A stretch of 64,000 nucleotides of DNA from a candidate division FCPU426 bacterium. GTDB lineage: Bacteria; Oederibacteriota; PGYV01; Palsa-1178. Location: NCBI GenBank assembly GCA_963840035.1, contig CAWIXE010000002.1, forward strand, positions 64,001 to 128,000, written 5' to 3'. The position numbers were made by a program, and so were the translations under genes. This document shows positions 7,351 through 34,939 of the stretch, piece after piece (positions within the stretch are counted from its first letter, which is position 1; every line of letters starts with the position of its first letter). Below the pieces are notes generated by a model. It was given only the letters and a program-made list of their open reading frames with translations, ran no database searches and was not told where the DNA came from.

Positions 7351-8844
7351 TTGGCAAAAGCAGCAAAACAAAAGCCGTTGAAGATTTTGATCGCAGCTTC
7401 TGAAGTAGTTCCGTTTGCCAAGACAGGCGGCCTCGCTGATGTCGCAGGAGCTTTGCCAAAGGCGTTAAGGGCTTTAGGCCACGACGTAAGGGTAATAATG
7501 CCAAAGTACAAAAAAATTGACGATGAGAAATTTAAGATACGCGATACGGGAAAAGAGTTTAAGATTAACATAGCGCTTTTTGACCATATAGGCACGATAA
7601 AAGAAACAGTCATACCGGGCTCGGATGTGCCGGTTTACATGATAGACAACACCGAATTTTTTTACAGGGACGAGATATACCGCACGCCGCAGGGCGAGTA
7701 CTGGGACAACGCGGAAAGGTTCCTCTTCTTTTCAAAAGGCATCCTTGAGGCTTGCAGGGCCCTTGACTGGCAGCCGGACATCATCAACTGCAACGACTGG
7801 CACACAGGACTGGTGCCGGTATTTTTAAAGACCACATACGCGCAGGACCCGTTTTTTAAGGGCACCGCGACGTGTTACTCCATACATAACATAGCCTACC
7901 AGGGATTCTTCAGCAAGGAACTCATGTCACACGCGGGGCTCCCATGGGAAATATTTAACATGCACCAGCTGGAATTCTATGACGGAATCAACTACATGAA
8001 GGGCGGCATAGTTTTCGCTGACGTGGTAAATACGGTATCCAAAAGATACAAGGAAGAAATAGAAACGCCTGAGTACGGCTACAACCTTGAAGGCACCTTA
8101 AGGCACAGGCGCGAGGATTTGCACGGAATATTAAACGGCATAGACTATGAGCACTGGGACCCGATGACTGATAAGGACCTGCCCGCCAATTACGGCGCGG
8201 ATACGGTCGAGAAAAAAGAGGAATCAAAGAAAAAACTTCTTGAAATGGTCGGTCTTAAATATGTGGAAAATGTCCCTGTCATAGGCCTGGTCTCAAGGTT
8301 TGACGACCAGAAGGGCCTCGACATGATATCCAGGATAATGGAAGAGATGATGAGGCTCAATATCCAGTTCGTGGTTTTAGGCACGGGAGAAGAACGCTAC
8401 CACCAGATGTTCCGCCACTGGGCGTCGGTTTTTCCGCAAAAGCTCTCGGCAAACATAATGTTTGACAACAACCTCGCGCACATGATATACGCCGGCTCAG
8501 ACATGTTCCTGATGCCCTCGCACTTCGAACCATGCGGCCTGGGCCAGCTGATATCGCTAAAGTACGGAACGATACCCGTAGTAAGGGAAACAGGCGGCCT
8601 TGCAGACACCGTAAAGTCCTATAATTTTAAGGACAAAAAAGGCAACGGCTTCTCCTACGCCGGCTACTACCCCACAGACCTGTATAACACAATCAGGGTA
8701 GCAGTGGACACCTACAAGAACCAGCCCGTATGGCGCAAAATCCAGCAAAACGGCATGAAAGAAGATTTCTCCTGGATCCACTCAGCCCAGAGGTACGTGG
8801 AACTCTACGACCTGGCCATAGCCAAAAAAAGGAAGGCCGAATAA
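7351..8844 (+). CDS. glgA: Glycogen synthase (GT5)
   Basis: SEVVPFAKTGGLADV, NDWHTGL, PSHFEPCGLGQL, TGGLADTV. Confidence 0.95.
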   Translation: MAKAAKQKPLKILIAASEVVPFAKTGGLADVAGALPKALRALGHDVRVIMPKYKKIDDEKFKIRDTGKEFKINIALFDHIGTIKETVIPGSDVPVYMIDNTEFFYRDEIYRTPQGEYWDNAERFLFFSKGILEACRALDWQPDIINCNDWHTGLVPVFLKTTYAQDPFFKGTATCYSIHNIAYQGFFSKELMSHAGLPWEIFNMHQLEFYDGINYMKGGIVFADVVNTVSKRYKEEIETPEYGYNLEGTLRHRREDLHGILNGIDYEHWDPMTDKDLPANYGADTVEKKEESKKKLLEMVGLKYVENVPVIGLVSRFDDQKGLDMISRIMEEMMRLNIQFVVLGTGEERYHQMFRHWASVFPQKLSANIMFDNNLAHMIYAGSDMFLMPSHFEPCGLGQLISLKYGTIPVVRETGGLADTVKSYNFKDKKGNGFSYAGYYPTDLYNTIRVAVDTYKNQPVWRKIQQNGMKEDFSWIHSAQRYVELYDLAIAKKRKAE

Positions 8845-8851
8845 TAATAAG

Positions 8852-8879
8852 TTGCAAAAAAACCGGAAATCTGTATAAT
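8852..8879 (+). promoter_or_regulatory. Probable promoter of tRNA-Glu
   Basis: TTGCAA-16 nt-TATAAT. Confidence 0.5.
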
Positions 8880-8948
8880 ATCAATTCGATTTGAGTTTTG
8901 AAATATGAGATAAACAATCCCGTTTCAAACTCCAAATAACGTCTTTTA

Positions 8949-8980
8949 TTTGGGATATGTGATTTGGGATATGAGATTAA
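8949..8980. repeat. Heptamer array immediately 5' of tRNA-Glu
   Basis: tttggga tatgtga tttggga tatgaga ttaa. Confidence 0.65.
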
Positions 8981-8985
8981 TAAGC

Positions 8986-9060
8986 GTCCCCATGGTCAAG
9001 AGGTTAAGACACCGCCCTTTCACGGCGGTATCGGGAGTTCGATTCTCCCTGGGGACGCCA
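8986..9060 (+). tRNA. tRNA-Glu(TTC)
   Basis: GTCCCCA/TGGGGAC acceptor stem; ccgcc-CTTTCAC-ggcgg anticodon arm; GTTCGATTC T-loop; encoded CCA. Confidence 0.97.
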
Positions 9061-9099
9061 AAAAAAATAGCCGGCTGAAGCCGGCTATTTTTTTTGGCG
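9056..9099 (+). terminator. Bidirectional terminator hairpin extending into the tRNA 3' end
   Basis: cgcc-A8-tagccggc-tgaa-gccggcta-T8-ggcg perfect inverted repeat. Confidence 0.85.
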
Positions 9100-9331
9100 A
9101 GAAAGGTGAGAGTAGAGAGGAGATAGGAGATAAACCAGGGACAATCGGCACCACTGTCGACTACCACTCAAACCCACCTTTCGGTCACCTATCTACTCTC
9201 TCCTATCTGAACGACTTTTCCTGCACTTCCGTTTTTGAAGTTGTTTCCTGATTTGTTTTATTGTAATATATCCGGAAGGGTAGGAAATAAAAACGATAAA
9301 CGGGGTCACCTTTCACCTATCTACTATCTGA
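9100..9331. repeat. Imperfect purine/pyrimidine periodic inverted repeat upstream of the four-helix-bundle gene
   Basis: gaaaggtgagagtagagaggagataggagata (9101-9132) vs cacctatctactctctcctatct (~9186-9208); related cacctttcacctatctactatct at ~9307-9329. Confidence 0.55.
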
Positions 9332-9371
9332 AAGTATTTGAACTAAGACAACATAGAGGGGGTTATATAGC

Positions 9372-9722
9372 ATGGCATTCCTATTTGAGAATCTGATTGT
9401 GTACCAAAAGGCAGTAGATTTCGCCGAGAAAATCTCCAATCTGACCGACAACTTCCCGAAGGGGACCTACTACCTCGTCGACCAAGTCAATCGCGCCGCA
9501 TTATCCATCCCGCTCAACATAGCCGAAGGCAACGGCAAATTCACAGGCAACGACAAAAAGAACTTCTTCTTCATAGCCCGCGGCTCCACCCATGAATGTG
9601 TGCCTTTGCTTGAGATCTCCAGACGCAAGGGCTTTATATCCGAGTCAGAGTGTGCGAAATTAAGGGCGCAGCTGGAAGAGATTGCGAAAATGATATCAGG
9701 GATGGTGAAAAGATACGAGTGA
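9372..9722 (+). CDS. Four-helix-bundle protein (23S rRNA IVS protein / bAvd-like family)
   Basis: FENLIVYQKA...FPK...Y.LVDQVNRAALSIPLNIAEG...FFFIARGS..E signature. Confidence 0.9.
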   Translation: MAFLFENLIVYQKAVDFAEKISNLTDNFPKGTYYLVDQVNRAALSIPLNIAEGNGKFTGNDKKNFFFIARGSTHECVPLLEISRRKGFISESECAKLRAQLEEIAKMISGMVKRYE

Positions 9723-9801
9723 GGCTTGTGCTAAAAATTGTATTTAATAAATACATAAAAAGGTGATAAAATAATATGTAAGATAATTGTTGGAGGAAAA
9801 A

Positions 9802-10407
9802 ATGAATGAAAACAAACAAATCAAATTTGATTTGAATCAAAACGAAAAGTTGCTGTGGGAAGGTTCACCGCGTTCGGATATGGCTACATTTGGTTTAAAT
9901 GACCTAAAGTTTATCCTTGCCGGTCTTTTTGGGATTACCGTTATTTTGCTGATTATGAGGAACATATATAGCCAGACAGGGTTTGTTAGAATGGATTGGA
10001 TGCTTATTTTATTCGCTGCATTTCTTGCTTTTTATGCGTATCAGATATTATTTATGTTTTTTACTAATATTATAATAAACAAAAAAACCAGATATTTCCT
10101 TACCAATAAAAGGGTTGTTTGCGCAAATTATATTAATCATAAGATAAAATATGAGTATCTGGAAAAAATTGATGCTGTTGATATAGTGATTAGTCCAAAT
10201 GATTATATTTCATTACATTTTGGGAAATTAAATTATTACGATAAGTCTTTTAGAAATACAGGCTTGAGATTCTTTAGCAAATTCTACGGTGAAAAGACCA
10301 TATCGTTTTTTTTAATCAAAAGCAGCATTACAATATTTAAAGTATTAAAGAAAAACAAAATCAAACAGTTTAATTATAATTCGTCTGATTATCGCGGGAT
10401 TTATTGA
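9802..10407 (+). CDS. Hypothetical membrane protein (2 TM plus probable bacterial PH-like domain); AT-rich
   Basis: GGAGG then ATG 9802; LNQNEKLLWEGSP...TM-TM...YFLTNKRV pattern. Confidence 0.7.
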   Translation: MNENKQIKFDLNQNEKLLWEGSPRSDMATFGLNDLKFILAGLFGITVILLIMRNIYSQTGFVRMDWMLILFAAFLAFYAYQILFMFFTNIIINKKTRYFLTNKRVVCANYINHKIKYEYLEKIDAVDIVISPNDYISLHFGKLNYYDKSFRNTGLRFFSKFYGEKTISFFLIKSSITIFKVLKKNKIKQFNYNSSDYRGIY

Positions 10408-10448
10408 AAAAGAACGGACCCTTACATGGGTTATATATGCGCACCCCG

Positions 10449-10638
10449 CAGGCATTGTAAATATTTACAGCCACCGTAGAGAAGGGGTTAACCCCTTCTC
10501 TACGAGGTCTATGACCCATAGAACGTATCCCTTACAAAAACACTCATCAGCCTTGAGGGACTCATATATACCATCCACAGGCATTGTAAATATTTACAAC
10601 CACCGCAGAGAAGGGCTTAACCCCTTCTCTGCGAGGTC
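10449..10638. repeat. Two 61-bp direct repeats, each containing palindromes
   Basis: caggcattgtaaatatttaca.ccaccgYagagaaggg.ttaaccccttctctRcgaggtc at 10449-10509 and 10578-10638. Confidence 0.85.
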
Positions 10639-10715
10639 CGTCACCCCCCACAAACCCTGTTGAACTTTCCCCCACCTTCCTTTATAATGATTTCACCAAA
10701 AAAAGGAGGCTCTTC

Positions 10716-12203
10716 ATGACTGATTTTAACGACAAAACACCGTCCTGGGCAAAAAACGCCACGGGATATCTCTGTTTTGTCGACAGTTTTGCCTCCTCTG
10801 TCCCCGACCCTGACGGGAAAAAGACTCCTTACACAGGCACTGCCTACGGACAGGAAATGATGAAGCTTAAATGGCATGAGACAGACCCTACGCTTCACCA
10901 CAACAGCGGTTTTTACGGGGGGGACCTTGCGGGCGCTGCTTACGCTGCTTCTTATCTGGCTGACCTCGGCATTGACATGGTTTACTTCACGCCCATATTT
11001 AAAGCAGTCAGTAATCATAAATATGACACCCTTGATTTTAAGATGATAGATCCTCAATTTGGCACCATTGATGACTTCAAACGTCTCGTTGATACATACC
11101 ATTCAAAAGGAATTCGCGTTATTTTAGACGGTGTTTTCAACCATACCAGCTCAGAGCATGAGTGGTATAAAAATGCAAAAGAAGGTGACTTAAGTTATAA
11201 GAATATGTATAAGGTAAATGAAGACGGCTATGTGATAGTGTGGAACGGCATTGAGACATTGCCGGTTTTAAACCATGATAATCCCGATGTCAGGGAATAC
11301 TTTTATGACGGGGCTGAGAGCGTGGTAAAGTACTGGTTAAAGCAGGGGGCTGACGGCTGGCGCCTGGATGTGGCAGAGCGTTTAGGCAAGGACACGCTTG
11401 CGCGCATAAGAAAGGCCGTGAAATCCTGCGGGGATGACAAGCTTTTGGCCGGCGAAGTCGTGGAAACATACGGAAAAGAATGGCTTGATAACGGGCTTTT
11501 GGACGCGGTGATGAACTACGCTTTCAGGGGGACCACGGCCAACTTCATGACAGGAAAAATAGACGCTAAAAACTACATGGAAGAGCTTGTGAAAATGTAC
11601 GAACAATACCCACGGGAGAAGCTCTACACCAGCTGGAACCTCATATCCACGCATGACACCAACAGGATGCTTTTTGACGTCGGCAATGACGAGGGCGCCT
11701 TCAAGCTCGCTGCTGTACTGCAGTTCACTTACCCCGGGATACCCATGATATATTACGGCGACGAGCTTGGCAGCGAAAAAGGCGAGAAGGAAACCCAGAA
11801 CAGGATGGGGCATGACTGGGAAGTGATAAACAGCCGCGGCAAATATTCGGCCGCGCGCGCCATGGAATGGGATAAAATAAGAAAATATAACAGTTATCAT
11901 GAGTTCTACAAGCACCTGATATGGCTCAGAAAGGCCTTTGCCTGTGTTTCTTCCGGAGATTTCCTGCCGGCATGCGCGCAGGGCGATGTCATGGCTTTTT
12001 TCAGGCATTCTGACAGAGGCACCGCGTTCATCATAATAAATAAGGGGCTTGATGTTTCTGTTAAGTTAAAAGTGCCCGAACAGGTGCTAAAAAACAACCT
12101 GGATCTAAAATGCGTTTACGGCGGGAACGGTTATTTTAAGCCGCGCTCCGCTGAAATTGATTTTTATATAGGCGGGAAAAACGCCTATATATTCGCGGGG
12201 TAA
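10716..12203 (+). CDS. GH13 alpha-amylase family (neopullulanase/cyclomaltodextrinase-like)
   Basis: GGDL.G, SNHKYDT, DGVFNH, DGWRLDVA, GEV, STHDT, PGIPMIYYGDE. Confidence 0.9.
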   Translation: MTDFNDKTPSWAKNATGYLCFVDSFASSVPDPDGKKTPYTGTAYGQEMMKLKWHETDPTLHHNSGFYGGDLAGAAYAASYLADLGIDMVYFTPIFKAVSNHKYDTLDFKMIDPQFGTIDDFKRLVDTYHSKGIRVILDGVFNHTSSEHEWYKNAKEGDLSYKNMYKVNEDGYVIVWNGIETLPVLNHDNPDVREYFYDGAESVVKYWLKQGADGWRLDVAERLGKDTLARIRKAVKSCGDDKLLAGEVVETYGKEWLDNGLLDAVMNYAFRGTTANFMTGKIDAKNYMEELVKMYEQYPREKLYTSWNLISTHDTNRMLFDVGNDEGAFKLAAVLQFTYPGIPMIYYGDELGSEKGEKETQNRMGHDWEVINSRGKYSAARAMEWDKIRKYNSYHEFYKHLIWLRKAFACVSSGDFLPACAQGDVMAFFRHSDRGTAFIIINKGLDVSVKLKVPEQVLKNNLDLKCVYGGNGYFKPRSAEIDFYIGGKNAYIFAG

Positions 12204-34227: not shown

Positions 34228-34581
34228 ATGGCGCTTACCAAGATCAATCACAAGGGTGTGGAAATAGTAATTGCCGATTTTTCAAACAAGAAATGGGAGC
34301 AGATATTTGAATATGGCGAAGCGTACTCAAAAGACTTCCTTGCGGAAGGCAAGCCGCAGAGGGTGCTTTTGGACCAGTCTAATATTGTAATGTCAGCGGA
34401 AGTAAGCCGTTATTTTAAGGCTTCGGCGTTAAAGGTCCAGCACCTCCAGGAAAAACTTGCCCTTGTCGGGGTTACGGGAATACAGAAGATAGTGGCAAAT
34501 GCCATAATGGCCCTTGTGAAGTCGAATGTGAAGATGTTTGATACAAGGGAACAGGCCATGAACTGGCTTGCGGAGAAGTAG
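34228..34581 (+). CDS. Hypothetical protein, SpoIIAA/STAS-like
   Basis: AGGAGG RBS; ALVGVTG...FDTREQAMNWL C-terminus. Confidence 0.65.
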   Translation: MALTKINHKGVEIVIADFSNKKWEQIFEYGEAYSKDFLAEGKPQRVLLDQSNIVMSAEVSRYFKASALKVQHLQEKLALVGVTGIQKIVANAIMALVKSNVKMFDTREQAMNWLAEK

Positions 34582-34690
34582 GTCTAAAACCTTCGATAAT
34601 CGAGAATCGAAAATTAACCGTCTATACTCACCTTTGAGCGGAGGAGTCTTTTCGGGCGGTTAGCTTATTGATCGCGCTGATTTCAATACT

Positions 34691-34739
34691 CCGCAACCAA
34701 AATGAAAAAAGGCAGCCTTTCGGCTGCCTTTTTTCATTT

Positions 34740-34748
<9 letters not shown>
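34691..34748 (-). terminator. Bidirectional terminator; 27-bp perfect inverted repeat including the last 9 nt of tRNA-fMet
   Basis: ccgcaaccaaaatgaaaaaaggcagcc-tttc-reverse complement. Confidence 0.85.
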
Positions 34749-34814
<66 letters not shown>

Positions 34815-34939
34815 ACTTAACTTAATCACAAATCCCATATCCCAAATCTCAAGGGAAGGGCTTAATTTATACTTAATCAGGAGACTTCACCTTTCTCCTG
34901 TCGACTCTCGACTTACTCCAAAATCCGCTCCGCGGATTT

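Follow-up and report, generated by a model that had tools for sequence, protein, structure and literature searches.

To our knowledge, proteins of the PF05635 family have no known function apart from the DGR homolog Avd, and we know of no explanation for the long heptamer repeats found in bacteria. Small genes can be accompanied by a cognate repeat family, as in RAYT/REP, where gene-less copies occur and specificity varies with the protein subfamily, and the 3′ ends of tRNA and tmRNA genes are used by tRNA-targeting integrative elements. The homology between PF05635 and Avd has been stated (in the accessible text of PMC10053308), and the portion of the Avd study available to us has five protomers contacting an 11-bp stem-loop with flipped-out bases (10.1101/2023.10.23.563531). 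Another part of the family, the S23p ORFs, is described in the accessible part of PMC4990558 as lying inside stems of 23S rRNA intervening sequences (IVS) that are excised by RNase III.

The gene studied here lies in a window of 64,000 nt, by which we mean the whole stretch of DNA that was analysed. The original prediction described a four-helix-bundle gene behind tRNA-Glu, preceded by an inverted repeat and a related third arm, with no clear downstream arm, no rRNA and no reverse transcriptase (RT), and our analysis bears out this description. The 116-aa ORF matches PF05635 (E 2.8e-31; 108.3 bits against a curated cut-off of 33.8) and TIGR02436 (100.5 bits against a cut-off of 24). The arms at 9100-9123 and 9185-9208 are 83% complementary and 61 nt apart, and the third arm, at 9304-9339, is real and is a direct copy of the second. 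Rfam gives tRNA alone in the 3.3-kb locus, PF00078 has 0 matches in the genome, and the inverted score between the upstream and downstream flanks is 20, which falls in the 71st-84th percentile of 2912 control ORFs. In window coordinates, the features of the locus are:

8986..9060, + strand: tRNA-Glu(TTC), the anchor (ARAGORN; Rfam RF00005), with discriminator G9057 and an encoded CCA at 9058-9060 (ARAGORN, Rfam)
9056..9099 (9056-9076 / 9079-9099), + strand: hairpin 1, a perfect 21-bp palindrome (repeats; compensatory changes among 8 relatives)
9100..9133, + strand: 5′ periodic arm of 7-base units (TRF period 7 at 9099-9130)
9101-9108, + strand: stem A, 8 bp, the opening bases of the 5′ periodic arm
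9134..9174, + strand: variable loop of the module (alignment with relatives)
9175..9186, + strand: A′ (9175-9182, complement of stem A) and the conserved GGTC (9183-9186), the predicted recognition site
9185..9211, + strand: 3′ periodic arm, an imperfect complement of the 5′ arm, giving a fold alternative to A:A′
9241..9269, + strand: weak promoter-like stretch with 17-nt spacing (read by eye)
9304..9339, + strand: third arm, a local duplicate of GGTC and the 3′ arm (repeat comparison)
9356..9362, + strand: Shine-Dalgarno-like G run (sequence)
9372..9722, + strand: four-helix-bundle gene, PF05635/TIGR02436, tRNA-linked clade, 116 aa

The left arm of hairpin 1 begins within the last five bases of tRNA-Glu, and the final bases of its right arm are the complement of the discriminator and CCA. 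Hairpin 1 and stem A go unmentioned in the original prediction. Downstream of it, the 5′ and 3′ arms can pair with each other in place of A:A′, and the RNA fold of this region (9095-9215) has a z-score of -2.0. The promoter-like stretch, which is clearer in relatives and was unflagged by a consensus scan, may be the gene's own promoter in this lineage, and the third arm is missing from the relative G006. Several neighbouring features were also recorded. Further 7-base arrays (8888-8983) lie between the tRNA itself and a promoter-like site for tRNA-Glu (8852-8879). Past the gene, an AT-rich ORF at 9787-10407 encodes a 206-aa membrane protein that has no Pfam match and a weak NF040894 match below cut-off, and that is absent at the same site in the relatives examined; two 72-nt direct repeats with GC palindromes at 10446-10646 are REP-like.

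The protein is 31% identical to Xcc0516 (2gsc), and its AF2 model (pLDDT 92.6) consists of four long helices that match 2gsc with a TM of 0.81-0.86 and also match 2rld. The match to Avd is weaker (TM 0.78-0.81, with 5-7% identity). Profile matches were PF05635 and a weak bAvd hit below cut-off alone, with no GIY-YIG or HUH nuclease domain found in the protein. Judging from its homologs Avd and Xcc0516, the protein is likely to assemble as a homopentamer, a pentameric barrel in shape. Among four close orthologs dN is 0.04-0.13, below that of the adjoining glgA, with synonymous sites near saturation, and such rates indicate that the protein is under strong purifying selection; broken copies of the gene occur among relatives too. 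At the tRNA-Glu copies synonymous sites are saturated or nearly so (pS 0.62-0.90), and the element has therefore been resident for a long time. For the same reason, a recent horizontal transfer of the tRNA-Glu copy is unsupported.

Period-7 arrays are very common in this genome, with 905 segments (749 of them intergenic) compared to 36-53 for periods 8, 10 and 11, and 22 segments fall within the window, so proximity of an array to the gene means little by itself. The full module is not a product of chance: a strict genome scan returned 13 matches, 9 of them at tRNA 3′ ends and 7 of these 9 without a gene, as opposed to 0-2 matches for five control motifs. Across loci, the order of the module is the tRNA end, a flush perfect hairpin, NGA, a covarying stem of 8-12 bp closed by GGTC, the periodic arms and then the gene. 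In standard tRNA position numbering, hairpin 1 begins at N73 or N72 in 68 of 89 distinct loci. The discriminator is A73 in 53 loci and G73 in 16, each with its own complement, and the complement of CCA is present wherever CCA is encoded. Hairpin 1 is terminator-like at the tRNA-Glu locus only; of 80 loci, just 9 show a 3′ U-run behind it and 57 have a loop of 3 nt, so it is not simply a terminator. A stem of at least 6 bp running from 1-4 nt past hairpin 1 to G[GTA]TC was found in 64 of 80 loci, whereas six control motifs gave 1-8 loci in the same test and a start shifted by one unit gave 3-4. Stem A shows several pair types per position, G-U pairs included, and compensatory changes are seen among eight close copies of the module, as judged on a hand-drawn structure from related rows. 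Among 128 loci the arms have a best period of 7 in 53 cases and of 8 in 66, and periods 6, 7 and 8 go with different protein groups. In 18 loci, Rfam at gathering score reported only tRNA and tmRNA, with no model for the module. A plain terminator beside a chance array is ruled out by the module scan, the U-run and loop counts, and the stem-A counts.

GNA triloops are stable in DNA. Among 60 odd-centred hairpin loops there are 14 of the GNA and 8 of the TNC type, compared with GNA in 4 of 89 control loops; a preference for single-stranded DNA (ssDNA) read from these loop sequences is weak. The flush pairing of N73 could have arisen passively, through template-switch correction of quasi-palindromes (PMC7202029), which counts against the selfish-element reading set out below. 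Some likenesses of the module lie apart from this argument. A resemblance of AGA/GGTC to the hairpin ribozyme was dropped as the loop content is not conserved. The AGAGCA-stem-GGTC consensus is reminiscent of tRNA, namely of its D-arm, anticodon arm and variable loop, and in one locus (L155) a degenerate tRNA-like copy stands directly ahead of the module; the module might therefore derive from a tRNA. At two loci (L043 and L046), the module follows a similar short sequence 130-200 nt upstream of the gene that is not recognized as a tRNA or by Rfam and may be the tail of some unknown RNA gene. When four Planctomycetota genomes were searched for one exact pattern, it matched 3 times and its reversed control 5 times, which is uninformative on copy number, although the search turned up a second, frameshifted copy behind tmRNA.

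The genome holds eight PF05635-family matches. Three of them, our gene and two paralogs with 57-59% identity, follow tRNA-Glu, tRNA-Gln and tRNA-Asp and have their two arms upstream; another four (L001, L002, L006 and L007) are enclosed by inverted arms, are about 30% identical to our gene or less and sit elsewhere in the tree. An enrichment of repeats around the family, as the original prediction had anticipated, was seen both for period-7 arrays within 150 nt upstream (5 of 8 family genes versus 437 of 2912 control ORFs) and for inverted arms around the gene (3 of 8 versus 90 of 2912), the control ORFs coming from a simple longest-ORF caller that misplaced the ends of L007. Among relatives and named genomes, 36 of 48 homologs with identity of at least 50% follow a complete tRNA or tmRNA gene, which is on the same strand and no more than 700 nt away; just 2 of 46 are enclosed (score of at least 36). 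Named-genome homologs at 36-45% identity have an upstream tRNA in 0 of 52, are enclosed in 46 of 52 and carry 6-base arms in 51 of 52; three duplicate loci were dropped from the tally of relatives and named genomes, and four loci without a tblastn match are uncounted. This neighbouring clade with 6-base arms (L066-L118 except L089) comes from Verrucomicrobiota, Ignavibacteriota and others. In a second sample of 80 metagenome loci, a tRNA or tmRNA lies upstream in 57 of 80, and in 47 of the 57 where at least 400 nt of upstream sequence is present. These loci span nine tRNA types and tmRNA, enclosure is found in 5 of 76, and many of the remaining loci carry tRNA 3′ fragments when inspected by eye. 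The carriers include members of the host's phylum, of Planctomycetota and of Omnitrophota, with one Peribacteria and one Actinomycetes record; their genomes are related and MAG-derived, and the tallies should be read as non-independent tests.

A quick tree of 105 rows, built on few columns and leaving out loci without an extractable ORF, recovers a 39-row branch (SH-aLRT 94) in which 34 rows are tRNA-labelled, 5 are other and 0 are enclosed; the tRNA-linked L004, L036 and L022 sit just outside it, so the tree stops short of making the tRNA-linked proteins monophyletic. The tRNA link is specific to a clade. Since arms upstream only are the rule for this clade, the missing downstream arm is not damage. 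Two more distant homologs (L026 and L029, 33-34% identity) follow tRNA-Asn and tRNA-Gln; they too have a flush hairpin, their arms differ, and they are possibly a second tRNA-linked lineage.

A search for GGTC plus arm, using the three gene-bearing copies as masters, returned 18 matches, of which 16 lie within 400 nt behind a tRNA, a space that makes up 0.27% of the sequence. The matches form three separate families, one per paralog. The family of the tRNA-Glu gene is also present, gene-less, behind tRNA-Gln(CTG) and two tRNA-Pro genes, and the satellite modules have diverged from their masters. Loci with more similar proteins also have more similar repeats (74 loci, Mantel rho 0.59, a value inflated by kin, against a maximum of 0.17 in 1000 permutations), also among pairs at different tRNAs (rho 0.54), and proteins that are 86-88% identical sit at different tRNAs. 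The original prediction had made the gene a trans-acting factor for the genome's heptamer elements. The trans-acting part gains support from the gene-less copies behind three other tRNAs and from a repeat type that tracks protein kinship. The assignment to the heptamer arrays as a whole does not stand, because arms alone occur 39-253 times, whereas those anchored by GGTC are hardly found away from tRNA ends.

In a comparison of three gene-bearing genomes with four in which the clade was not found, full modules occupy 8/46, 9/36 and 3/34 tRNAs in the former and 0/35, 0/31, 0/27 and 1/34 in the latter; for the six of these seven genomes other than the present one, the tRNAs counted are those inside 28-30 loci each. 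One genome (G059) has a full module, with the clade gene not detected. At the orthologous tRNA-Glu site, read by eye in 30 relatives, 8 are filled, 4 have a full module without an intact gene, 2 are partial, 15 have none and 1 is unreadable. G002 and G006 belong to the same genus and have glgA 85% identical, their genes are 62% identical, and they carry different repeats beside near-identical hairpins. In this pair, one variant of the element has been replaced by another at that site. Other tRNA ends deserve mention on their own account. At 34580-34939 (- strand) of the window, flush hairpins and periodic arms behind tRNA-Leu(TAA) and tRNA-Met are partial, gene-less derivatives, the tRNA-Met hairpin being an inverted copy of a larger part of the tRNA end. 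Elsewhere in the genome (G000), tRNA-Thr, tRNA-Arg and tRNA-Gly genes have tandem duplicates, near 1422126-1422300 of contig C2 and immediately after the tRNAs at 180700 and 508769 of contig C3. Each duplicate has in its D-loop a related insertion of ~80 nt with a GC hairpin and a second shared hairpin, suggestive of an unusual intron or of another element, distinct from ours, that targets tRNAs. Near contig ends (C2 1685000-1693000 and C3 2400-4400), the ORFs are Ala/Arg/Pro-rich and unlike the rest of the genome, possibly foreign sequence in the assembly.

Our favoured reading, to which we give about an even chance, is that the locus is a gene-bearing copy of a tRNA/tmRNA-3′-end module and likely a selfish element, with an Avd-like protein predicted to bind its own module. 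We hypothesize from the homology to Avd and Xcc0516 that the pentameric barrel would hold on to the stem of 8-12 bp and its unpaired GG while the module is single-stranded. The substrate may be either ssDNA or the pre-tRNA trailer, and we lean to ssDNA. By binding its own module, the protein would help to maintain and disseminate copies with and without the gene. Their transfer to further tRNA ends would then probably be the work of host recombination or of template switching at the folded palindrome, because no enzyme accompanies the element. A catalytic partner was sought without success: no RT was found in the genome, and among the ORFs downstream of the gene 1 of 89 is an integrase and 0 of 89 an RT (89 of 112 candidates were scanned, with near-duplicates and some others left out by hand). 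PF13366, the GxxExxY partner, was not found in the genome either. Two loci hold side observations on nucleases: L206 has a small GIY-YIG-like ORF, recognized by eye, between tRNA-Glu and a duplicated tRNA 3′ half ahead of the module, and a similar fragment lies downstream of the gene in L015.

A DGR is rejected as the genome is without RT, and no template and variable repeat (TR/VR) pair differing at adenines was found in 8000-11000. An island passenger with its own integrase is rejected because just one of the 89 neighbouring ORFs is an integrase. No carrier was found among viral contigs or phages and the plasmid matches listed have 37-42% identity, so a phage or plasmid vector was set aside. 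The search for a target duplication or a 3′ boundary found none, and in second copies, which are tandem, the 5′ boundary test has, in 4 of 12 rows, homology that stops close to the hairpin loop. Four DNA runs that were searched yielded short pieces from other organisms only, and no joints. The selfish-element reading has against it that there is no sign of recent movement and that the satellites have diverged, and the strong conservation of protein and module fits a benefit to the host equally well.

In a second explanation, which we find doubtful, the module has been domesticated and controls, at the RNA level, how tRNA 3′ ends mature or are read through. Hairpin 1 would stack on the acceptor stem and hide the discriminator and CCA, and the protein would bind the bulged stem of the precursor, switching it between A:A′ pairing and the long arm-to-arm fold. 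The exact N73 register at many tRNA types and tmRNA, the two mutually exclusive folds, the G-U pairs of stem A and the strong purifying selection all agree with this, as does the RNA binding of Avd reported in the accessible part of 10.1101/2023.10.23.563531. At many Planctomycetota loci a promoter would hardly fit between the tRNA end and the start codon, which are 104-170 nt apart. The distribution speaks against control at the RNA level: the clade is present in only 26 of 99 genomes of the phylum, with several copies broken, the module is absent from the 15 orthologous tRNA-Glu genes noted above out of 30, and which tRNAs carry it varies without pattern. The RNA-type GNRA loop is found in 3 of 80 hairpins, compared with 25 of 207 control hairpins, and the terminator-like hairpin 1 of the tRNA-Glu locus means that the module there may be little transcribed.

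It is unlikely, in our judgement, that the module is the gene's own autoregulatory leader, carried to tRNA ends as a passenger of islands, with gene-less modules as relics of gene loss. In some loci (L018, L042, L053 and L064), what precedes the copy is indeed a tRNA 3′ fragment of the sort found at island ends, neighbours are of the island type (e.g. Fic, RhuM, methylase and HNH), and broken and deleted genes occur, with a gene fragment retained in G007. Against a leader of this kind, an adjoining integrase is as rare as stated, intact gene-less modules are concentrated in gene-bearing genomes, two of the genomes where the clade was not found show remnants of hairpin and 5′ arm, and the hairpin is fitted to the discriminator of many different tRNAs. 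The notion in the original prediction of a truncated or filled hairpin-enclosed cassette, excised from mRNA as rRNA IVS are, draws on the enclosed paralogs and on the S23p ORFs of rRNA IVS stems and is very improbable, failing at the tRNA-Glu locus because the whole clade has both arms upstream and none downstream, the arms surround 61 non-coding nt and not the gene, the module is tied to tRNA and tmRNA ends, and the enclosed paralogs belong to other parts of the tree.

Returning to the selfish element, we tentatively suggest a wider class: a minimal mobile element that homes to tRNA and tmRNA 3′ ends by means of nothing but an Avd-like pentamer and a folded single-stranded module, with no integrase, transposase or RT of its own, and that seeds gene-less satellites. 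In such a class, PF05635 subfamilies would amount to a specificity code, with periodic repeats of 6, 7 and 8 bases. The clade offers a short and precise candidate ligand, NGA, stem and GGTC beside a tRNA-flush hairpin, and its natural cognate and non-cognate pairs, of which one genome supplies three, lend themselves readily to binding assays. Should the element move, it would target tRNA ends without any known enzyme; should it act on pre-tRNA, it would add a new control on tRNA 3′ maturation.

The protein family, PF05635/TIGR02436, is known, and the element is not an rRNA IVS, a DGR or an integrase element. Neither the tRNA-linked form nor the enclosed cassette was found described in the literature, in a search whose coverage stops short of supplements and most subscription papers, and the tRNA-end element is apparently undescribed in searchable literature. 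The ORF-bearing 23S rRNA IVS of Coxiella and Leptospira (S23p), as presented in the accessible text of PMC4990558, share the protein family, the sporadic distribution, the decay of the ORF, complementary repeats and the tie to a stable RNA gene. Here, in contrast, the gene lies outside the stem, unenclosed, behind a tRNA or tmRNA 3′ end and not inside rRNA, and gene-less satellites occur at other tRNAs. Avd (PDB 4dwl, 8ub7) has the same fold and, from what is accessible of its description, sets a precedent for a pentamer that holds a short stem with flipped-out bases; unlike a DGR, the locus has no RT, template repeat or variable repeat, and it is separated from Avd by the low identity and the sub-threshold bAvd match. 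Compared with tRNA-targeting integrative elements, this one is small (about 0.5-0.7 kb), has no integrase and, in most loci, no second att copy at the far end. Theta ribozymes, in the available portion of PMC10879173, are likewise structured sequences flush with a tRNA 3′ end, a position that is all they share with our module; they are phage-borne, whereas our module is chromosomal, has a variable core and a linked protein gene, and gave no Rfam ribozyme match among the models compared, which stop short of theta-specific ones. Bacterial heptamer SSRs resemble it in their intergenic 7-base arrays, often in inverted pairs, and the accessible text of PMC4692102 and PMC4679880 names no helix-bundle gene or link to tRNA ends. 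The Ssn/NTS system, in the part of PMC11893778 available to us, pairs a small gene with a cognate repeat family that has numerous gene-less copies and a specificity dependent on the protein subfamily. Here too a master with dispersed gene-less copies of the same repeat was found, as in gene-plus-cognate-repeat elements; unlike Ssn/NTS and RAYT/REP, it has no known nuclease or HUH domain, is confined to tRNA and tmRNA ends and has periodic arms. By analogy, and with no nuclease domain of its own, the element would work most like these gene-plus-cognate-repeat systems.
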